Shown here: positions 2,038-63,875 of the stretch, piece by piece
Numbering within the stretch: position 1 is the stretch's first letter
How the letters are laid out: each line of letters starts with the position of its first letter
Source of the DNA: Candidatus Peribacteria bacterium RIFCSPHIGHO2_01_FULL_51_35
GTDB lineage: Bacteria > Patescibacteriota > Gracilibacteria > Peribacterales > Peribacteraceae
DNA length: 64,000 nucleotides
Assembly: GCA_001787535.1 (NCBI GenBank)
Contig: MFXP01000015.1
Location: forward strand, 22,549 to 86,548
Direction of reading: 5' to 3'
Translations under genes and position numbers: made by a program
The notes under the pieces: model-generated
The model's database searches: none
What the model saw: the letters and a program-made list of their open reading frames with translations, nothing else
What the model was told of the DNA's origin: nothing

Positions 2038-3681
2038 CTATTCCCACCTCGTTCCCCTCGCCACCGGCTGTCCCAGCTCCACCCAATTGAAGTTGCCCGT
2101 GCCATCCGTCCAGCGAACGGCCCCGTTGGCACTGATGCTGCCGGGTTGATTAAGGGAAATTTGGAGGAATGGATTCTGCGTGCCATTCGTGAGCGAGACG
2201 TCTGCGAAGAGTCTAAGTGTCCGCGATGATCCGCTGCCGATGGCGCCAAGTTCCTCGGGAATATTCGTACAGCTCACGGTATTGCTGCTCATGCTGCATG
2301 CAACGCGCGTGGTGGTGTCCGTTGCCCCCAGTTCCCACCCCGTCGTCTGCACACCCGTCGGTTTGGTGACCTCGAATTCCAACTCCGTGATCTCCAAATC
2401 CGCCTGCGGAATTATTTCTCCACGAAACGCAAAGCCTGCCACCAATTGATCATTGCCCAGCGGGAGAGCATCTTGTTCCTTGAGAGCATTCGTCACTTCC
2501 GTGATCTTTGCCTGAGCCGTTTGATGCTGCGGATACGGAATGTCAGCTGGCAAGGACTGATACGTTTCCTGCGTAAAACCTCCTTCGACCGTCAGAGAAA
2601 AGCTGTCCACCTGAATCATCTCTTCGGACACGCCGCCCGCATTTCTGCCTTTCAGGAGCACCTCGATGCCGAGCACGTTCTCCGTATCCTTGTCCATGAA
2701 ATACGCTCCTTCCGTCGCGAAGCTCGCTTTCCAGGTGAGATCATCCGCATCAAAAACATCAGGTGTCAGGCGACCGATTTCTTTGCCCTGCGCATCGATC
2801 AAAAACATGCTCTCGATGGATTCATATTCTTCCTCCATCACAACAGTGACCCCGCGAATGTACATCGGCTCGCGTGAGGCGAAGAACGATGCGCTTGCGA
2901 TGGGTTCGGAGCGCTCGCCGAGAATGAGGAACCTGCTCTTGGCGGGGAAAGCGGGGAGTGCACCAACGGTGGAAGAAACTGATGATGCAGAAGAGACGGA
3001 GGATCGGGAAGAAGAACGTAAAGACGAGGAACGGCCGGAACTCATGGAACCGGAAAATCCGCTGCGTTCGATGGCTCGATACTCGTCCAATTCTCCTTCC
3101 ATAAACGCTCTGTACGCCGCTGCCAAGCGCGCCATTTGTCCTCGTGTGAGTTGCATATCCATGCGCCCCTCGAGTCCGGGCAAACCGACTCCCGCTGCGT
3201 AGGCACCTTCCCGATACTGCACATACCATTCGTTGCCATCAGGAACCTCTGCAGTGACGGTGTTCAGGATGCCAAGTATTTTGAGTGCTTCGGCATAGTT
3301 CACAAGGCGCTCGGGGTGAAACAATCCGTCGGGATATCCCGAAATCACGCCACGCTTCTTCGCAAGGCACACATACCGCGAAAACCACGCATCACGCGGA
3401 ACATCGGGGAAACATGTATCTGCATCACCGGCAATGACCATGATGTCTGAGCGCGAGAGCAGTGCTATCTTCAAAAACTCTGCGCGATTGATTGTCCTTT
3501 CCGGATGAAAAAAACCATCCGGGTATCCTTGAATAACTTCAAGATTCGTAAGCACGCTTATACCTGCAGCTTCCGGCCGCAGAAATGGCGCATCAAAATA
3601 ATCCTCACTGCGATCGGAATAATCCAATGCAAACGCCGCGAAGGGAATAAGAAGAGCCAGGGAGAGAAGAATGCGTCGCAT
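2038..3681 (-). CDS. secreted SLH-domain (S-layer homology) cell-surface protein
   Basis: Signal-peptide-like MRRILLSLALLIPFAAFA. Three SLH-like repeats (GYPDGFFHPERTINRAEFLKI, FPDVPRDAWFSRYV..., GYPDGLFHPERLVNYAEALKIL). Ser-rich linker followed by a C-terminal domain. Confidence 0.8.
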   Translation of the reverse strand: MRRILLSLALLIPFAAFALDYSDRSEDYFDAPFLRPEAAGISVLTNLEVIQGYPDGFFHPERTINRAEFLKIALLSRSDIMVIAGDADTCFPDVPRDAWFSRYVCLAKKRGVISGYPDGLFHPERLVNYAEALKILGILNTVTAEVPDGNEWYVQYREGAYAAGVGLPGLEGRMDMQLTRGQMARLAAAYRAFMEGELDEYRAIERSGFSGSMSSGRSSSLRSSSRSSVSSASSVSSTVGALPAFPAKSRFLILGERSEPIASASFFASREPMYIRGVTVVMEEEYESIESMFLIDAQGKEIGRLTPDVFDADDLTWKASFATEGAYFMDKDTENVLGIEVLLKGRNAGGVSEEMIQVDSFSLTVEGGFTQETYQSLPADIPYPQHQTAQAKITEVTNALKEQDALPLGNDQLVAGFAFRGEIIPQADLEITELEFEVTKPTGVQTTGWELGATDTTTRVACSMSSNTVSCTNIPEELGAIGSGSSRTLRLFADVSLTNGTQNPFLQISLNQPGSISANGAVRWTDGTGNFNWVELGQPVARGTRWE

Positions 3682-7003: not shown

Positions 7004-7090
7004 AAGCAGAAAGCGCAGAGTAGAAAGCATAGAGCGGACGGGAAAGCGCATCCTTTACTTTCTGCTCTATGCTCTTTGCTTTCTGCTTTT
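7004..7090. repeat. CAGAAAGC-word hairpin (same family as 63745-63828)
   Basis: Left arm AAGCAGAAAGCGCAGAGTAGAAAGCATAGAGC, right arm TTTACTTTCTGCTCTATGCTCTTTGCTTTCTGCTTTT. It lies between the lspA stop and the murA start. Confidence 0.85.
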
Positions 7091-7525
7091 CTCGATTACC
7101 CATTCCAAAAGCAACAATGCCACTCCGATGGTGATGAACGAGTCTGCGACATTGAAGACGGGAAACGTTCCCACTTGAAAAAAATCCGTCACAAATCCGT
7201 CGCGCAGACGATCCAAAATATTTGCGAGTGCACCGCCGAGTATCATCCCGAATCCAACATGTGTGAGAAGCGTCTTCGTGGACCTCACTGCAAAAATTGC
7301 GACGAGAACAAGTGCTGCGAGGATCAAAATTTCTTGGAATCCCGCAGGGAGCTGCAGCCCGAATGCGATGCCGGGATTCAGTGCCGGGTCAAGTCCGATG
7401 AATTGACCGATAATGGCAATACGCTCGACGAGATAGACATCGGCAAGAAGCTTCGCGGCGAAGCTAAGGGCAAAACTGAGTGCGCCGACAAGGAGAAGGA
7501 TTTGCACGAGAAGATGATATACCAC
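7067..7525 (-). CDS. lspA: lipoprotein signal peptidase II
   Basis: NPGIAFGL and FPVFNVADSFITIGV motifs, 152 aa, four TM segments. Confidence 0.9.
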   Translation of the reverse strand: MVYHLLVQILLLVGALSFALSFAAKLLADVYLVERIAIIGQFIGLDPALNPGIAFGLQLPAGFQEILILAALVLVAIFAVRSTKTLLTHVGFGMILGGALANILDRLRDGFVTDFFQVGTFPVFNVADSFITIGVALLLLEWVIEKSRKQRA

Positions 7526-8749: not shown

Positions 8750-8757
8750 TTTGTAAG

Positions 8758-8848
8758 GTTTGCTGGTTTGCTCGTCCGCCTTTGGCGGACTTGTTAGCTG
8801 GTTTGCTGGTTAACGAGCAAACAAGCAAACTAGCTAACCAGCAAACAA
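8758..8848. repeat. GCAAAC-word imperfect palindromic element, copy 2 (between ftsW and murG)
   Basis: Almost base-for-base identical to 1932-2033. Confidence 0.9.
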
Positions 8849-10793: not shown

Positions 10794-10856
10794 GAAGACA
10801 TAAGACACAAGATGTAAGACAGCTGTATCTTGTGTCTTATGTCTTGTATCTTTTTT
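10794..10856 (+). terminator. AAGAC-word hairpin followed by a T-run (likely intrinsic terminator of the PPIase gene)
   Basis: AAGACACAAGAT (10802-10813) pairs with ATCTTGTGTCTT (10827-10838). The centre is ACAGCTGT and TTTTTT follows. Confidence 0.7.
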
Positions 10857-18757: not shown

Positions 18758-19567
18758 ATGCATCTTGCAAAAAGATGCAAGACACAAGACACAAGATACA
18801 AACGATTATTTCTTGCGTCTTGTATCTTGTGTCTTAACGTTGGAGTAGTTGCAATAGCCATCGGCACATTTGCAATAATGCATTCGAATGCGAATGCTCA
18901 AAACACCGATCGTGCGGAACCCGTGCTGGCCGCATGTTCCGGCTCCTCCATCGTATTTCCCAAGAATCGTTTCATCTTCCTCACGAATCCCGTGGAACGC
19001 TTGCGCAGGGACTACCACGCAACCGTGGAAAAAGTCATCACCGCGCACATGGAAGAGCGCACGATTGTCTGCACGGAAGGCGTGCGCGAAGTGCCTACAG
19101 AGGCATTGAATGATCTTGCAGAGAGACTGCCGCCGTGGCGTTCTCCCATTCGCTCCGCCGGTCTTCGTGAATCCGATATCAGCGCCGTGCTGCTGGAATA
19201 CGTGCGCGTCTATGAATGCGCCCTGAAGGAACATGAGTATTTCGGCGCAACGCGCGTCGCGAAGGATACGGAAGATGGCGCGGGCATCTTCAATATCTTC
19301 AGGTTCTTGAATACGTCCGCCGAGCGCACGGATTTGATCCGTAAAGAATTGATCTTCGCTCGGCGCGCACTGGAACGCACGCTTGCGCTCCTCGGCGGCA
19401 TGGATCGCTTGCGCCCGGTGGATGCGAGCTTGGAATGTTTACAGCTCTCATCCTTTGAGATTCGAAACCTCGTTGCTCTCGCAGCGGACGCGGCGTCCTG
19501 CATACCGCGCGCACTGGATGCAAAAACCTCCCTCCGCGACATCTCCGCAGATCCTCCCGTAGAATGA
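18758..19567 (+). CDS. secreted/membrane-anchored protein 3 (unknown function; start uncertain)
   Basis: In-frame ATG at 18758 gives MHLAKRCKTQDTRYKRLFLASCILCLNVGVVAIAIGTFAIMHSNANA, which is signal-like but encoded by the arms of a word hairpin. The alternative ATG at 18879 would lack a signal. Confidence 0.55.
   Translation: MHLAKRCKTQDTRYKRLFLASCILCLNVGVVAIAIGTFAIMHSNANAQNTDRAEPVLAACSGSSIVFPKNRFIFLTNPVERLRRDYHATVEKVITAHMEERTIVCTEGVREVPTEALNDLAERLPPWRSPIRSAGLRESDISAVLLEYVRVYECALKEHEYFGATRVAKDTEDGAGIFNIFRFLNTSAERTDLIRKELIFARRALERTLALLGGMDRLRPVDASLECLQLSSFEIRNLVALAADAASCIPRALDAKTSLRDISADPPVE
18786..18835. repeat. AAGAC-word hairpin between or overlapping operon genes 2 and 3
   Basis: AGACACAAGATACA pairs with TGTATCTTGTGTCT around a ~20-nt loop. 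It uses the same word family as 10794-10856 and the arms flanking 37193-37558. Confidence 0.85.
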
Positions 19568-33976: not shown

Positions 33977-36900
33977 TCACTCCTTCGCCTCCTCTTTTTT
34001 CTTCTCCGCCTTCTTCCGCTCCAGTCTCTTCACTTCCTCCGTCAGCGCATCCATCCACTTGCCGTCCTTTGCGAGCCTGTGCAATTCCGATTCCGCAATC
34101 CTCAATGTCGATCCGCTGATGCGCCAGCTTGCATTTTTCGCAAGCAGCTGCATGATTTCCTTTGCCGTCACGCGCCCGCCCAAGCTCAGCACAATGTCAT
34201 CATCTTCCATTTTGATGCGCTGCACGCCCGCGCGGCGACACGCGAGTTTGAGACGAAGAATGGCAAAGAGGTTCACGACTTCTTTCGGCAGTTCGCCGTA
34301 TTCGGAGTGAAGATCGGTTTCAAACTCCGCGAGGATCGCCTCATCTTCACTGCCAGCAAGTTTCTGGTACACGGAAATCTTTTCCTGTTCGTCGGGAATG
34401 TAAAAGGATGGAATGAGCGCTTCGATGGGGAGCTGAATTTCCACCGTCACTTCTTCCTCGATGGCTTCTTTTCCACCAGCCGCCAGTTCATCCACTGCGT
34501 GCTTGAGCATGCGCAGGTAATGGCTGACACCCACGGTTTGCATCGTGCCCGATTGCGAGGCTCCCAGGATTTCACCTGCGCCGCGGATCTCCAGATCGCG
34601 CATAGCCACTTGAAAGCCGCTGCCGAGCTCGCAGGCCTCGACGATGGCGCGCAGACGCTTCTTGGCATCGTCCTTGAGTTTCTGCGTGTGGTAGAGGAAA
34701 TACGCGTACGCCTGCACTTTGCTGCGTCCCACACGTCCGCGAAGCTGGTAGAGCTGCGCAAGACCGAATTTCTCGGCTTCATTCACGATCAATGTGTTTG
34801 CGCGCGGAAGGTCGATACCGTTTTCAATGATCGTGGAGCTGACGAGCACATCATATTTTCCTTCTTTGAATCCCATGATGCGCTCTTCCAACGCTTCCGG
34901 TGTCAATTGCCCGTGTCCGACGACGAATGTTGCGCCGGGAACGAGAGATCGTAATTTATCGGCGAAGGCATCGATGGTTTCCACGCGATTGTGAAGCACA
35001 AAACACTGTCCGCCGCGTTTGATCTCTGCGAGGATCGCCTGTTTTGTGAGTTCATCGGAATATTTGCGGACTTCCGTGATGATCGGGAGCCTGCCCGGCG
35101 GGGGGGTGGTGATGGCTGTGATGTCCCTGAGTTTATGCAGACCGAGATTGAGCGTGCGCGGAATGGGAGTCGCCGTGAGCGTGAGAATGTCCACGGATGC
35201 GCGCATCGCCTTGAATTTTTCTTTTTGTTTGACGCCGAAGCGTTGCTCTTCATCGACAATCACGAGTCCCAGATTCAAGAACTTGACGTCGTCCTGCAGC
35301 AACCGATGCGTGCCAATGACGATGTCCACGTCTCCTTTGCGGAGTTTCTCCAGCGTCACCTTCTGCTCCTTCTGCGAGCGGAACCGCGACAGCATGTCGA
35401 TCTTCAGATTGAATCCCTTCATACGATCTTCAAAATTGCGGAAGTGTTGATCCGCCAAGATGGTGATGGGCGCAACGACCGCCACTTGCTTCCCCGCCTT
35501 CGCCGCTTTGAACGCCGCACGCATCGCCACTTCTGTTTTGCCGAATCCGACATCACCGCAAATGAGCCTGTCCATGGGGTGCCCGCTTTCCATATCGGAT
35601 TTGATATCTTCGATTGCTTTGATCTGCCCGGGTGTTTCCTGGTACGGGAATTTTGCTTCGAACTCCTGCTGCTCTTTCGTGTCTTCGCCAAACGAATGTC
35701 CTTTGGCTTTGGCGCGTTTGGCGTAGAGATCGAGCAACTCTCGTGCCATTTCTTTGGTTTCCAGACGCATCTTCTCGGACACGCGCTTCCATTCCACGGC
35801 TCCCAGACGGGTGAGAACCGGCTCCTGGCCTTCTTCGTGCACGAACTTGCTGAGTTTGTCCGCCTGATCGACGGGAACGAATAATTTATCGCCCCCTGCG
35901 TACGTCAGTTCCAGGTATTCGCGTGCAACATTGTCGATCTCTTTCTGTGTCATCCCTTCAAAATGTCCGATACCATGATCCATGTGCACGACGTAGTCGC
36001 CCTGCTGGAGTGATGTGATGAAATCGAGTGCAAGTTTTTGGACACTGCGTTGCTTCATTGCTTTTTTGAGTGTGAAGATTTCACGATCGGTCAAAAGCGC
36101 GCACTGGAGATCCGGATTCTGCAATGAGTGGGGGAGATGATCGTCCTCGGCGGCTGCAAAAATCGTGACGGAACCCGGGCGCTGCGTATCGCCCGAGGAA
36201 TGTGCGATACGCTCCTCCGTCAAAATCTGTTCCAGTTCCTCCGCACGCTTTGTCACGACAAGCAGCGTCCATTTTTGCTGTAATTTGTCGCGCACATCGT
36301 TCAGGAAATCCGTGAGTGTGTAGAACTTGAGCACAGAGAGATACCGAAGATGCGCATGATGCTTCTGGGATTCCGGAAAGGCTGTGAATGTCAGTGTTGT
36401 GGCTCCCGTTGGCCGTGGCTCATCCTGCTGATCATCCAACACAAGCAGTGTTTTTGAAGGAAATTGATCCGCAAGCAACTCAGCATTTGCATATCGAACA
36501 GGGAAGATGACAAGTTCTGTTCCGGCATCCTCTGTTTTGGAAAGATCATGGGAATCAACGGCCAGAATTTGCTCAACTGTATCGAAATGGAAAATAATGC
36601 GGTACGGATGCGGCGATTGGATGGGGTAAATATCCAAGACATCGCCGATGCGCCTGTACTCCCCGGGGCGAAGATAGATATCATCGCCGTGGCTGTACCC
36701 GCGTTCGATGAAGAGTTCGACGGTCTCCGTGAAATTCACCTTCTTTCCTCTCAGGAGCAGAATGCTTTTCTGGAGTAACTCTTCATACCGAGGAAATGCG
36801 GTGTTCCACGTATCGCTCGTTGCAACGAAGATCGTTTCCTCTGCGTTATCCTCTCGCTTCCGATCCATAAAAAGCAGATAGGTCTGCAACTGCTCGGGGG

Positions 36901-37165
36901 AGAGTTCTCCTTTTTCATTCTCGATGGGCGCAAGCTCCTTCACATCACACTCGAAAAAGTGAAGCCACTGGCGCAGCCCTTCACTGCTCGCTTCGTTCTC
37001 CGTCACCAGCAGTGTGCGTTCCGGATAAAACGAGAGGAGATGTGAAAGAAGCAGCGCTTTTGCGGTTTCATTGGATGCGCCCGATATCACCAAATCCCCG
37101 CTCTTTTGGAGCAGATCGGCAAGTTCACGGTGCGTGTTCCTTCCCAGAAGGAGAGAGGGGATCAT
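33977..37165 (-). CDS. mfd: transcription-repair coupling factor
   Basis: 1062 aa. It has a CarD-like segment, a DEAD/DEAH helicase core (GDVGFGKTEVA, DEEQRFG) and a TRCF C-terminal domain. Confidence 0.95.
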   Translation of the reverse strand: MIPSLLLGRNTHRELADLLQKSGDLVISGASNETAKALLLSHLLSFYPERTLLVTENEASSEGLRQWLHFFECDVKELAPIENEKGELSPEQLQTYLLFMDRKREDNAEETIFVATSDTWNTAFPRYEELLQKSILLLRGKKVNFTETVELFIERGYSHGDDIYLRPGEYRRIGDVLDIYPIQSPHPYRIIFHFDTVEQILAVDSHDLSKTEDAGTELVIFPVRYANAELLADQFPSKTLLVLDDQQDEPRPTGATTLTFTAFPESQKHHAHLRYLSVLKFYTLTDFLNDVRDKLQQKWTLLVVTKRAEELEQILTEERIAHSSGDTQRPGSVTIFAAAEDDHLPHSLQNPDLQCALLTDREIFTLKKAMKQRSVQKLALDFITSLQQGDYVVHMDHGIGHFEGMTQKEIDNVAREYLELTYAGGDKLFVPVDQADKLSKFVHEEGQEPVLTRLGAVEWKRVSEKMRLETKEMARELLDLYAKRAKAKGHSFGEDTKEQQEFEAKFPYQETPGQIKAIEDIKSDMESGHPMDRLICGDVGFGKTEVAMRAAFKAAKAGKQVAVVAPITILADQHFRNFEDRMKGFNLKIDMLSRFRSQKEQKVTLEKLRKGDVDIVIGTHRLLQDDVKFLNLGLVIVDEEQRFGVKQKEKFKAMRASVDILTLTATPIPRTLNLGLHKLRDITAITTPPPGRLPIITEVRKYSDELTKQAILAEIKRGGQCFVLHNRVETIDAFADKLRSLVPGATFVVGHGQLTPEALEERIMGFKEGKYDVLVSSTIIENGIDLPRANTLIVNEAEKFGLAQLYQLRGRVGRSKVQAYAYFLYHTQKLKDDAKKRLRAIVEACELGSGFQVAMRDLEIRGAGEILGASQSGTMQTVGVSHYLRMLKHAVDELAAGGKEAIEEEVTVEIQLPIEALIPSFYIPDEQEKISVYQKLAGSEDEAILAEFETDLHSEYGELPKEVVNLFAILRLKLACRRAGVQRIKMEDDDIVLSLGGRVTAKEIMQLLAKNASWRISGSTLRIAESELHRLAKDGKWMDALTEEVKRLERKKAEKKKEEAKE

Positions 37166-37167
37166 AA

Positions 37168-37197
37168 AGAAGTAAGACTCAAGACATAAGACTTAAG
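37168..37197. repeat. left arm of a split AAGAC-word hairpin flanking the four-helix-bundle gene
   Basis: GAAGTAAGACTCAAGACATAAGACTTAAG matches the reverse complement of 37585-37613 at about 22 of 29 positions. Confidence 0.75.
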
Positions 37198-37558
37198 TTT
37201 TGTTTGTGAGTTTTTTGTAAAATGCATACAGCATACGATCGAGTTCAATGATTTTTTCAAGCACAAGCTTTATCTGCTCCTGAGAAATAAATCCTAGATC
37301 ATGAGCGGCAAGCATCTGTGTATGCAATTCCGCCAAAGACCCTTTTGCCATTAAAATAAAATTTGCAAATTCCTTTTCCGATGTTCGCTGGCTCCCCTCG
37401 GCAATATTCGACGGGATAGATATAGCAGAACGCCGTGACTGCGACGTGAGTCCGTATATTTCTTCTTTGGGAAAGGATTTGGTGACTACGTAAACCAACT
37501 TCACCAAGTCCATACCCTTTTGCCAAATTAATAACTTCTGAAAAGGCATCCCTATCAT
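37193..37558 (-). CDS. four-helix-bundle protein (23S rRNA intervening-sequence protein family)
   Basis: LLIWQKGMDLVKLVY..TKSFPKEE.YGLTSQ.RR.A.SIPSNIAEG......KEF..F...A.GSL.E..T is the family signature (TIGR02436-like). Confidence 0.85.
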   Translation of the reverse strand: MIGMPFQKLLIWQKGMDLVKLVYVVTKSFPKEEIYGLTSQSRRSAISIPSNIAEGSQRTSEKEFANFILMAKGSLAELHTQMLAAHDLGFISQEQIKLVLEKIIELDRMLYAFYKKLTNKT

Positions 37559-37584
37559 TTTTTCAACTTGAGCTGCGAGGTTGC

Positions 37585-37613
37585 TTACATCTTACATCTT
37601 ATGTCTTACGTCT
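37585..37613. repeat. right arm of the split AAGAC-word hairpin
   Basis: CTTACATCTTACATCTTATGTCTTACGTC lies ~27 nt upstream of the four-helix-bundle start. Confidence 0.75.
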
Positions 37614-37618
37614 GCCAG

Positions 37619-38788
37619 TCATTCTTCCTGCATCCGCAAGGGCATGATCAGATGCAAGCAGTGCGGCGTTTGCGGTGCCACGAAGACGGCGGGGTGCACG
37701 CTGTCCACAATGCGCATCTCCACATTGCTGTCGCCGGTGTGTCCCAGGAAGTCCAAGAGGTAGGATGAGCTGAGCGCGATCTTATTGTCGTCACCTGACT
37801 TTTCCACCACCAAGCTTGCTTCGTCGCGCCCAGCCTGTGTCTGGGGCGTCATGACCCGTGCCTCGCCTTTGGCGATATGGAACGTGAGGTTATTATTCAT
37901 CTCCTTTGCAAAGTAATGCATGCGGCGTGTGGCGACGAGAAGCTCGTGTGTGGAAAAGAGGACTTTCGTCTTCGTATCCTTCGGAATGATCTGTTCGTAA
38001 TCCGGAAATTTGCCATCGATCAAGCGGGAAAGCAGCCGTGTGGATCCTATTTGGAATTCGATCTGCTGCTTGCTCATGGTTGCCTCCACTTTGAGTGCAG
38101 ATTCTTTGATGACATCCTTCTCCTTCTTGTCCTCTTTCCCCTCAGACTTCTTCTCCCCCTTGCGCGCACCCAAGATGATCTTCAATTCCTCCAGAATTTT
38201 TGTAGGAATGATGCACGAAAGATCCGAGGCTCCTCCCTGCAGCGGCATCTTGTATTCTGAGAGGCGATAGCTGTCTGTCGCCACCAGGATCAATTTTCCC
38301 TTCTCTGTGCGGAAATACACGCCGGAGAGCACGGGACGCAGTGTGGTCTTTGTGGATGCAAAGGTGACCATGTGCAGCGCATGGAGGAGGGGGTCTGCTT
38401 CCAAGGTGAAGGATGTTTGCTTTTCCACAGTGGAGATAGTGGGATATTCCGATGCCGCCTCGCCGGCAATCAGTGTTTTTGCGTGTTTGGAAGTGCACTT
38501 GAGCTGTGTTCCTTCACTGGTTTCCAAAAGCACCTCCGCATCGTTGTTATATTGAGCAAAGTTTACAATAGCTTTTGCTGGAATAGTGATCGATCCTTCA
38601 TTTTCAATATTCGCCTCAAAACTTGTGATAATACTCAATTCCAAATCCGTCGCACTCACGGTGCAACGCTTTCCTTCCACTTTCATAAGAATGTTTCCCA
38701 AAATCGGCAACGCCTGCTGTGTTCCAATCGCTCTACTTACCAAATGTAATGCCTGTAGAAGATCACCTGTGTTGCAAGAAAATTTCAT
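37619..38788 (-). CDS. dnaN: DNA polymerase III beta subunit (sliding clamp)
   Basis: MKFSCNTGDLLQALHLVSRAI....LPILGNILMKVEG; three-domain length (389 aa). Confidence 0.95.
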   Translation of the reverse strand: MKFSCNTGDLLQALHLVSRAIGTQQALPILGNILMKVEGKRCTVSATDLELSIITSFEANIENEGSITIPAKAIVNFAQYNNDAEVLLETSEGTQLKCTSKHAKTLIAGEAASEYPTISTVEKQTSFTLEADPLLHALHMVTFASTKTTLRPVLSGVYFRTEKGKLILVATDSYRLSEYKMPLQGGASDLSCIIPTKILEELKIILGARKGEKKSEGKEDKKEKDVIKESALKVEATMSKQQIEFQIGSTRLLSRLIDGKFPDYEQIIPKDTKTKVLFSTHELLVATRRMHYFAKEMNNNLTFHIAKGEARVMTPQTQAGRDEASLVVEKSGDDNKIALSSSYLLDFLGHTGDSNVEMRIVDSVHPAVFVAPQTPHCLHLIMPLRMQEE

Positions 38789-48855: not shown

Positions 48856-48918
48856 AATGACCAATGACGCAATGACCAATGACCAACTTGGTCATTGGTC
48901 ATTGCGTCATTGGTCATT
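48856..48918. repeat. 63-nt near-perfect palindrome built of AATGACC words
   Basis: AATGACCAATGACGCAATGACCAATGACCAA-c-TTGGTCATTGGTCATTGCGTCATTGGTCATT has 31-nt perfectly complementary arms. It lies between the RNase J stop and the HAD start. Confidence 0.95.
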
Positions 48919-53530: not shown

Positions 53531-53625
53531 AATATTGGATTATCGGAGTACTGGAATATTGGGGTGATTTCTGTGTGCATTTCCTAGTATTCTAGTATTC
53601 CAGTACTCCAGTACTCCAGTATTCC
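53531..53625. repeat. hairpin whose arms are tandem 8-mers (GARTAYTG)n / (CAGTAYTC)n
   Basis: Left arm is GAATATTG|GATTATCG|GAGTACTG|GAATATTG, starting at the last base of the upstream stop codon. Right arm is TAGTATTC|TAGTATTC|CAGTACTC|CAGTACTC|CAGTATTC (53585-53624). Confidence 0.9.
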
Positions 53626-63744: not shown

Positions 63745-63828
63745 GAGCAGAAAGCGCAGAGCAGAAAGCAGAGAACAATTATTCATATCTTACTTTTTGC
63801 TTTTTGCTCTTTGCTCTTTGCTTTATGC
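63745..63828. repeat. CAGAAAGC-word hairpin, second family member
   Basis: The left arm GAGCAGAAAGCGCAGAGCAGAAAGCAGAGAAC is nearly identical to 7004-7035. The right arm is CTTACTTTTTGCTTTTTGCTCTTTGCTCTTTGCTTTATGC. Confidence 0.85.
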
Positions 63829-63875
63829 TACCAAAGGATTTTTGTTGCATTCCCCCAAACCTCTCTCGTTCTCCC

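Follow-up and report, generated by a model that had tools for sequence, protein, structure and literature searches.

A four-helix-bundle gene between inverted heptamer arrays in the dnaN-mfd spacer of a Peribacteria genome: a probable intervening-sequence-type cassette outside ribosomal RNA

The locus described here lies in a 64,000-nt stretch (64 kb; the window) of the genome of Candidatus Peribacteria bacterium RIFCSPHIGHO2_01_FULL_51_35 (GCA_001787535.1, contig MFXP01000015.1, positions 22,549 to 86,548), which belongs to the Candidate Phyla Radiation (CPR). The minus strand carries, in this order, dnaN, a small open reading frame (ORF) of 121 amino acids (aa), and mfd. The ORF encodes a four-helix-bundle protein of the family that is found in intervening sequences (IVS) of 23S ribosomal RNA (rRNA), and it is bracketed by two inverted arrays of tandem 7-nt repeats, here called the 5' and the 3' arm. 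The features of the locus, in the order of the minus strand, are:

37619-38788, minus strand: dnaN, for the DNA polymerase III beta clamp (ORF, with Pfam matches to DNA_pol3_beta domains 1-3 on L001, an identical contig)
37584-37613, minus strand: 5' arm, sense strand AGACGT AAGACAT AAGATGT AAGATGT AAG, tandem heptamers in agreement with the TNAGTKR consensus of the family
37559-37583, minus strand: leader of 25 nt from the 5' arm to the ATG, within the loop
37193-37558, minus strand: four-helix-bundle gene of the 23S_rRNA_IVP / S23p family, 121 aa (ORF and profile matches)
37168-37197, minus strand: 3' arm, sense strand CTTAAGT CTTATGT CTTGAGT CTTACTT CT, which includes the TAA stop of the gene
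33977-37165, minus strand: mfd, for the transcription-repair coupling factor (ORF, with Pfam CarD_TRCF_RID, DEAD, Helicase_C and TRCF on L001)

A repeat search returned the two arms (37168-37197 and 37584-37613) as inverted repeats of 30 nt each, 77% complementary and separated by 386 nt, and a direct count gives 23/30 Watson-Crick pairs. The original prediction, which placed the small gene in the loop of a split word hairpin between dnaN and mfd, is thus correct, with the arms now refined to 30 nt. TRF detects a period of 7 in both arms, in inverted orientation, with 3.6 copies in the 3' arm and 4.3 in the 5' arm. The arm word is AAGAYNN (AAGAYRT in the 5' arm), in about four tandem heptamers per arm. 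The dnaN-mfd spacer is wholly filled by the 446 nt of arms, leader and gene (37168-37613), with 5 nt from the dnaN stop to the start of the 5' arm and 2 nt from the end of the 3' arm to the ATG of mfd. The stop codon of the small ORF (37193-37195) falls within the 3' arm, as had been predicted, and 25 nt separate the end of the 5' arm from the ATG (about 27 nt in the prediction). Because this leader is part of the loop, the start region of the ORF lies outside the stem. In sense (minus-strand) RNA four additional G-U pairs bring the arms to 27/30 paired positions (-28.6 kcal/mol), compared with 23/30 (-20.4 kcal/mol) in the antisense RNA, and in folds of a 481-nt sense RNA the arms are paired in the minimum-energy and centroid structures alike. 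The arms do not have the form of an intrinsic terminator: they are 386 nt apart and A+T-rich, and no such site was identified in the spacer.

By its profile matches, the predicted protein is an intact, full-length member of the PF05635/TIGR02436 family. The match to PF05635 (23S_rRNA_IVP; E 4.9e-38, 130 bits with a cutoff of 33.8) covers residues 7-111 and profile positions 1-105 of 106, and those to the four-helix-bundle model TIGR02436 (E 1e-36, 125 bits, cutoff 24) and to NF008911 (139.4 bits, cutoff 137) also exceed their cutoffs. The best match among solved structures is PDB 2GSC (E 1.3e-23), the protein XCC0516 of Xanthomonas campestris, whose entry has five chains and which has been described as a homopentamer (PMC4990558; PMC3936711). 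The conserved R-x3-S-x3-N-x2-E of the family motif GxxRxxxSxxxNxxE (PMC3936711) is present as R43, S47, N51 and E54; in an alignment of 35 sequences the last three are invariant and R43 is nearly so (at least 90%). No match for the protein was found in the defence-system library (padloc) or in the phage collection. The hidden Markov model (HMM) of the family identifies only one gene in the window. A candidate second gene at 7008-7142 (tblastn E 0.04) was rejected, as it is a low-complexity word hairpin on which the family HMM is silent.

Other copies of the gene are flanked by inverted arms as well, which the original prediction had implied. We analyzed 80 loci with relatives of the gene, from species-representative genomes of many phyla, in which 77 family genes were scored, with 201 ORFs from the same loci as controls. 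For the inverted-repeat score, the 100 nt before the start codon were aligned to the reverse complement of a 100-nt stretch beginning 20 nt ahead of the stop codon's end (a flank comparison by duplex energy only was dropped because it was confounded by G+C and had heavy-tailed controls). Scores of at least 12 were obtained for 74% of the family genes and 1% of the control ORFs, and scores of at least 16 for 53% and 1%, respectively. Where arrays were detectable beside the gene, their period was 7 in 40/42 cases upstream and 39/40 downstream (periods 4-11 tested), most commonly with 4 units per arm (range 3-6). We also used a detector blind to the genes, which looks for period-7 arrays first and then for inverted pairing. 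Over 759 kb it returned 33 pairs with gene-sized loops, and all except one of these enclose a family gene, including two extra copies that had not been targeted. The geometry is shared across many phyla: a median of 21 nt separates the 5' arm from the ATG, and the typical 3' arm starts about 4 nt ahead of the stop codon's end. Across the family, such arms belong integrally to the packaging of the gene and have been maintained in evolution.

The packaged genes lie in operon-like spacers. They are co-oriented with the upstream neighbour at 65/76 loci and with the downstream neighbour at 64/73, with median gaps of 71 and 41 nt. There is no rRNA at any of the 80 loci, and the arms are unmatched by Rfam there and in the window. 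The other tight spacer contexts include rpsR-yebC, ppdK-pdxS and ugd-pfkB, which hold further close relatives of the window protein in the same tight geometry, as well as cas6-cas4 and gmk-nadD. Packaging was also identified in 4/6 inspected curated plasmids, mostly from Nostocales, with arms of (TAGGGAG)8 / (CTCCCTA)5 in a Nostoc edaphicum plasmid and the word TCAGGAG in one of N. punctiforme. On plasmid pANA02 of Anabaena sp. 90 (L138, 1183-1551), the family gene lies between cas6 and cas4-cas1d of a type I-D operon and is flanked by ACAGGTG arrays. The copy on plasmid gamma of Nostoc PCC 7120 (L136, 1201-1551) has an array downstream (CTTCTGC / CCTCTGC) but lacks an arm upstream, where the end of an ISL3 transposase gene lies 77 nt away; this insertion sequence may have displaced the 5' arm.

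The words themselves vary. Two genomes each have two family genes within 2-3 kb of each other, with their own arm pairs and different words: GAGATAT and AAGAACC at L012 (1168-1654 and 2831-3428), and GAGACCT and GGGACAA at L036 (390-906 and about 2900-3400). Words as a genome-specific signature were therefore rejected. Some words, such as AGTGGTT and AAGACAY, are common to distant phyla. By expectation-maximisation we brought the heptads of 46 upstream arms into phase (orthologous loci among the 46 limit their independence) and obtained the consensus T-N-A-G-T-K-R, with A in 89% at position 3 and G in 89% at position 4. Its information content is 3.61 bits, compared with 2.54 +/- 0.10 (maximum 2.81) in a column-permuted null. 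The window words TAAGACA and TAAGATG fit this consensus. The idea that the heptads provide stops in all three frames is unsupported (39% of 5' arms, and 33 +/- 6% of column-permuted arrays). A C-poor 5' arm, considered as a sign of polarity relative to the gene, was withdrawn because a perfect inverted repeat is identical on both strands, so that only the handedness of the hairpin is described.

In Flavobacterium, orthologous loci have arms that fill a spacer flanked by the same pair of genes, and the words of both arms are altered in concert (e.g., from AGGTTCAA to AGGCACTA). In 6/7 groups of orthologous loci, pairing of an arm with its own partner is on average better than pairing with the partner arm of another species (for example, scores of 31.5 vs 7.5-9, and 15.5/17 vs about 6). 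This reflects either selection for pairing or a homogenising mechanism, and the data do not say which.

A metagenome scan with DnaN recovered 45 related loci. The dnaN-mfd synteny is found in about 35 of them, and the small gene is in none of those spacers, which are mostly 5 to about 370 nt long, with a few of 720-2,600 nt. The closest relative of the window protein, at locus L141 (71% identity), has the same order of dnaN, four-helix-bundle gene and mfd, and the DnaN of L141 (72% identical) is the sister of the window's in a neighbour-joining tree. The arms at L141 are degenerate AAG/CTT heptads. On this comparison, the insertion is derived and old, and was gained once, in the common ancestor of the window genome and one sister lineage. 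The original prediction also noted that the ORF is more A+T-rich than its neighbours. This is the case (G+C of 40%, compared with 50% in dnaN and 53% in mfd), but it is not a sign of recent arrival: G+C of the family ORF is below that of the 1-kb flanks at 73/77 loci (median -8.5 points), tracking that of the host (r = 0.86), and is 37% at L141 against 46-47% in its neighbours. Because low G+C is a family trait that is also seen in this old, vertically inherited insertion, we rejected it as a mark of recent transfer.

One of the closest known elements is the 23S IVS of Coxiella burnetii, which is 428-444 nt long, is inserted in helix 45 and has a 28-bp terminal stem (PMC4990558). Its 5' arm consists of AGAAGA followed by two or three (depending on the strain) GACAGAT heptamers just before the ATG of the S23p ORF, and RNase III cuts at the first repeat (PMC4990558). 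Likenesses to the window locus are the protein family in the loop (shared also with the IVS of Leptospira), the terminal inverted repeats with a stem of about 28-30 bp, the tandem heptamers of the 5' arm beside the ATG (GACAGAT vs AAGAYRT) and the length (428-444 vs 446 nt). The resemblance to 23S IVS that had been proposed is supported by these features. The hosts differ, being a 23S rRNA helix (25 or 45) for the IVS and an mRNA spacer for the window element; the IVS are by definition insertions in 23S rRNA, and Rfam identifies three tRNAs only, and no rRNA, in the window. Excision by RNase III is demonstrated for the rRNA element only.

We conclude that the 446 nt at 37168-37613 are probably one IVS-type cassette, in which a PF05635 gene lies between inverted heptamer arrays, lodged in the dnaN-mfd operon spacer. 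A scan of 36900-38000 identified no promoter-like or terminator-like site on the spacer's minus strand (the single minus-strand terminator-like match, at 36962-36979, is inside mfd), so that the cassette would be co-transcribed with dnaN and mfd. In the transcript the arms may zip into an imperfect stem of roughly 30 bp, which would keep the insert outside the host RNA and bring the dnaN stop (5 nt from the base) beside the mfd start (2 nt from the base). By the rRNA precedent, the stem is a likely substrate of RNase III, and cutting would release the mRNA of the small gene. The predicted ribosome-binding region of mfd lies in the 3' arm, as does the stop of the small ORF; thus, ribosomes that end translation of the small ORF should open the stem and couple translation of mfd to it.

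Several results weigh against the cassette interpretation, or against parts of it. In a word-preserving null, in which the constant letters of the words were kept and only the variable positions shuffled, 103/1000 trials paired as well as the real arms, and the variable positions of the heptamers are unmatched between the two arms. The arms are complementary because both are built from a shared word. What departs from chance is where the two arrays lie, inverted on either side of the gene, and not any extra complementarity. One of the two outcomes that the original prediction named as refuting it, complementarity no better than AAGAC-rich sequence would give, is therefore observed in a narrow sense, which does not overturn the finding. 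Across the family, G-U-compatible mismatches number 50 in the sense and 54 in the antisense orientation, and so give no indication that the sense transcript by itself is under selection (a sense excess of G-U pairs, 4 vs 0 in the window, was accordingly rejected as proof of an RNA stem). Homogenisation by template switching at the DNA level, without any role for RNA, could be sufficient to maintain the stems. The arms at L141 are more decayed than those of the window, and the stem at this old insertion may be eroding. A search for signature motifs identified no RNase III gene in the window. Finally, the S23p ORF of Coxiella is decaying and its protein is apparently not made (PMC4990558), whereas the window ORF is intact and conserved.

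The result of the word-preserving null would also be expected if two AAGAC-rich stretches lay by chance on either side of an unrelated small gene. We give this explanation almost no weight. Arrays of AAGAY words occur at just three places in 64 kb (two intact hairpins and the split pair, with 19 pattern matches where 3.7 are expected), and chance does not account for the bracketing of 74% of family genes compared with 1% of controls, or for the family gene in 32/33 of the gene-blind pairs.

The two intact AAGAY hairpins in the window have no gene in their loops:

10794-10856, plus strand: solo AAGAYNN hairpin, -31.9 kcal/mol, z -6.3, which fills the spacer of two plus-strand ORFs, with a T run after it
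18772-18835, plus strand: second solo AAGAYNN hairpin, about -35 kcal/mol, z -6.5 to -7.7

The arms of the cassette belong to the same word family as these hairpins, as had been stated in the original prediction (which began the second one at 18786). This genome has gene-less hairpins at scattered sites, some of the AAGAYNN word and some of other words, and in the window they outnumber filled ones by at least 7 to 1. They raise the possibility of a landing pad, i.e., that a native, terminator-like hairpin without a gene came first and that the gene entered its loop later, for example by recombination of the arms of a cassette with a solo hairpin of the same word. This is possible, if rather unlikely. 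Consistent with it are the AAGAYNN solos of this genome and locus L132, where a close relative with AAGAC-word arms has a solo AAGAC hairpin one gene downstream. Solo hairpins are also abundant elsewhere, with 186 arrays published for Xanthomonas (PMC4692102), and the different words of the two copies in one genome (L012 and L036) point the same way. Furthermore, gene-less heptamer hairpins are present in exactly the dnaN-mfd spacer of some relatives, with the words TTAGTCA at L096/L097, GTTGCTG at L098 and ATGAATK at L104, and a (GGGTTT)n array and, at a distance from it, a CCCTAACCC arm lie in the spacer of L099. However, these solo hairpins are built of other words and are scattered across the dnaN tree, so they are not ancestral to the clade of the window genome. 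The spacers of L096/L097 and L092/L100, compared for the exact empty-site boundaries of a solo hairpin, are too diverged for alignment. In addition, the arms of the cassette and the AAGAYNN solo hairpins of the window are now identical over at most 11-12 contiguous nt, which is too short for homologous exchange. Joint inheritance of arms and gene would account more readily for the position of the stop in the 3' arm and for a leader of about 21 nt, both of which are conserved across many phyla. The conserved stop-in-arm geometry favours the arms as a vehicle that travels with the gene, and the many solo hairpins of the same word favour the landing pad; the two are not exclusive. Overall, what the original prediction observed is confirmed and its interpretation is partly supported.

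Two of the relatives' dnaN-mfd spacers are unusual in other respects. That of L099 (2575-2799) has a telomere-like (GGGTTT)n tract of about 45 nt, with a partly complementary CCCCAGCCCTAACCC arm about 130 nt downstream. In L093 (4191-4501) there is a nested hairpin of about 150 nt, with outer arms (GCCGAGGATTCCGACGAAG...) around a second, perfect and G+C-rich hairpin (-153 kcal/mol for the fold of the spacer).

The absence of a sense-strand excess of G-U pairs, the concerted change of both arms at orthologous loci, the presence of close protein relatives in unrelated genomic contexts and the strain-variable copy number of the Coxiella repeat (PMC4990558) are all compatible with an element that acts at the DNA level. 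The arms would then be the terminal inverted repeats of a unit moved in trans, like a miniature inverted-repeat transposable element (MITE), or quasi-palindromes whose halves replication template switching keeps alike, and the RNA stem would be a by-product without function. The locus does resemble an autonomous transposon with its MITEs, or the REP/RAYT system (repetitive extragenic palindromes and their associated transposase), in that a genome has one gene-bearing and many gene-less inverted-repeat copies. The protein, however, is no recognisable transposase or nuclease, and the arms are built of words that vary from copy to copy and diverge rapidly, which the ends of a transposon family do not do. 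The arm ends show no target-site duplication (sense CTGGC upstream, and TT then ATG downstream, are not direct repeats), and no transposase was identified among the neighbouring genes annotated on L001 or near the inspected copies of relatives. At the inspected locus and its neighbourhood there is thus no transposase, target duplication or reverse transcriptase to account for spread. The rRNA versions, moreover, are demonstrably processed as RNA (PMC4990558). We consider a purely DNA-level explanation unlikely.

The arms may also be compared with the heptameric repeats of other bacteria. In Xanthomonas (Xcc), GGGAATC arrays occur at 186 sites, with 70 convergent inverted pairs, and a heptameric repeat GGGGAYT is known from Nostoc (PMC4692102). 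TAACTGA repeats occur in Beggiatoaceae, cyanobacteria and some Bacteroidetes (PMC4679880), and TCAGTTA, the reverse complement of TAACTGA, fits the TNAGTKR consensus. These arrays (GGGAATC; GGGGAYT/TTTTGAA of Nostoc; TAACTGA; the STRR of Calothrix) resemble the window arms in having 2-14 tandem 7-nt units in intergenic regions near the ends of genes, and in Xanthomonas they often form convergent inverted pairs. The window arms have what defines a heptameric array, being an intergenic inverted pair with at least three tandem 7-nt units in each. Unlike them, the published arrays are mostly gene-less and have been read as G-quadruplex formers or translational signals. Array #15 (GGGAATC) in a supplementary table lies between bccP and XCC0516, the gene of the crystallised family member (PMC4692102). 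Neither that paper nor PMC4679880 mentions the four-helix-bundle family (the terms 'S23' and 'four helix' are absent), and the family has apparently not been linked before to the heptameric repeats in Xanthomonas, Nostoc or Beggiatoa.

One reading of these regularities is that the heptads are putative binding sites for a multimeric or cooperative protein, and that binding competes with the stem. Candidates would be the four-helix-bundle homopentamer itself, by analogy with TRAP and its (G/U)AG repeats, or cold-shock proteins, which have a 7-nt footprint. The heptad core (A and G, 89% each, at positions 3-4) is conserved across phyla in arms that usually have 4 units (range 3-6), and the solved relative, 2GSC, has five chains in its entry and is described as a homopentamer in the literature. 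The gene of that structure, XCC0516, abuts a GGGAATC array (PMC4692102), and CspB is reported to bind with one protein per heptamer (as cited in PMC4679880). On the other hand, a conserved protein is accompanied by fast-changing words, and its nearest relatives have different ones. Some arrays lack the AG core (e.g., GGGGACC in Xanthomonas), and the commonest number of units is 4 and not 5. We regard such a binding array as quite doubtful.

The Avd proteins of diversity-generating retroelements (DGR) have a homologous four-helix-bundle fold (bAvd, PDB 4DWL). Avd forms a pentameric assembly that binds nucleic acid and the reverse transcriptase. The window protein has weak matches to bAvd PF22296 (31 bits), to NF033474 (34 bits) and to a PHROG 'Avd protein of DGR', and could in principle be an Avd accessory gene or the remnant of one. 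The two former matches, however, are far below the curated cutoffs of 40 and 80 bits, and the phage collection had no match. The neighbours are dnaN and mfd, no reverse transcriptase is present in the 13.6 kb annotated around the gene, and a local repeat search found no template/variable repeat pair and no long direct repeat. An origin as an Avd gene is therefore very improbable.

If the packaging rule is true, the rRNA IVS are a special case of a general cassette in transcribed spacers, held topologically outside the host RNA. The origin of the ORF-bearing IVS of 23S rRNA has been an open question since the early 1990s. The annotation 'four helix bundle / S23 ribosomal protein' is carried by thousands of genes that have unrelated operon genes on either side, and heptameric repeats are over-represented in Xanthomonas, Nostocales, Beggiatoaceae and Bacteroidetes. 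These three oddities, i.e., the IVS, the annotated genes and the intergenic repeats, are apparently one phenomenon. The locus itself is an IVS-type cassette in an mRNA spacer, and its interest comes from the family-wide rule and the link to heptameric repeats. Where family genes occur in cas operons, they have been read as CRISPR-associated, by functional association; one of them lies 85 nt and 5 nt from cmr3 and cmr2 (PMC3936711). Such gaps indicate the same spacer-filling habit, and the published CRISPR associations of the family may simply reflect lodging in operon spacers. For annotation, the neighbours are thus a poor guide to the function of these genes. We found no statement of a packaging rule outside rRNA in the literature, although subscription journals were mostly outside our reach and one may exist.

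A broader proposal, which we make tentatively and which is unlikely to be right, is that PF05635 genes and heptamer hairpins form one widespread two-part system. The gene cassettes would be the 'autonomous' members, with gene-less arrays (STRR, GGGAATC, TAACTGA and the window solos) as their partners, and the pentameric protein would recognise arrays with AG every 7 nt and generate, maintain or regulate them. If true, this would explain the excess of heptameric repeats in bacterial genomes and name the binding partner that was postulated in Nostoc.

Other repeats in the window differ from the AAGAC family. A perfect 31-bp palindrome with a 3-nt loop (48856-48918, -53.6 kcal/mol) fills the spacer between two minus-strand ORFs and consists of four AATGACC followed by four TTGGTCA heptamers; we take TTGGTCA to be the unit of the cyanobacterial STRR2 repeat. 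A hairpin of 8-nt words (GTTAGCTG / GTTTGCTG ... AGCAAAC / TAGCTAAC) is present in two intergenic copies, at 1966-2032 and 8757-8848. At 53581-53625, between convergent ORFs, there are 5.5 direct copies of the 8-mer TTCCAGTA, with no inverted partner. AGCAGAA / AGAAAGC heptamers are paired with CTTTCTG / CTTTTTG at 7008-7089 (-41.8 kcal/mol) and 63746-63829 (-34.5 kcal/mol), and the former hairpin is the source of the spurious weak tblastn match to the four-helix-bundle protein.

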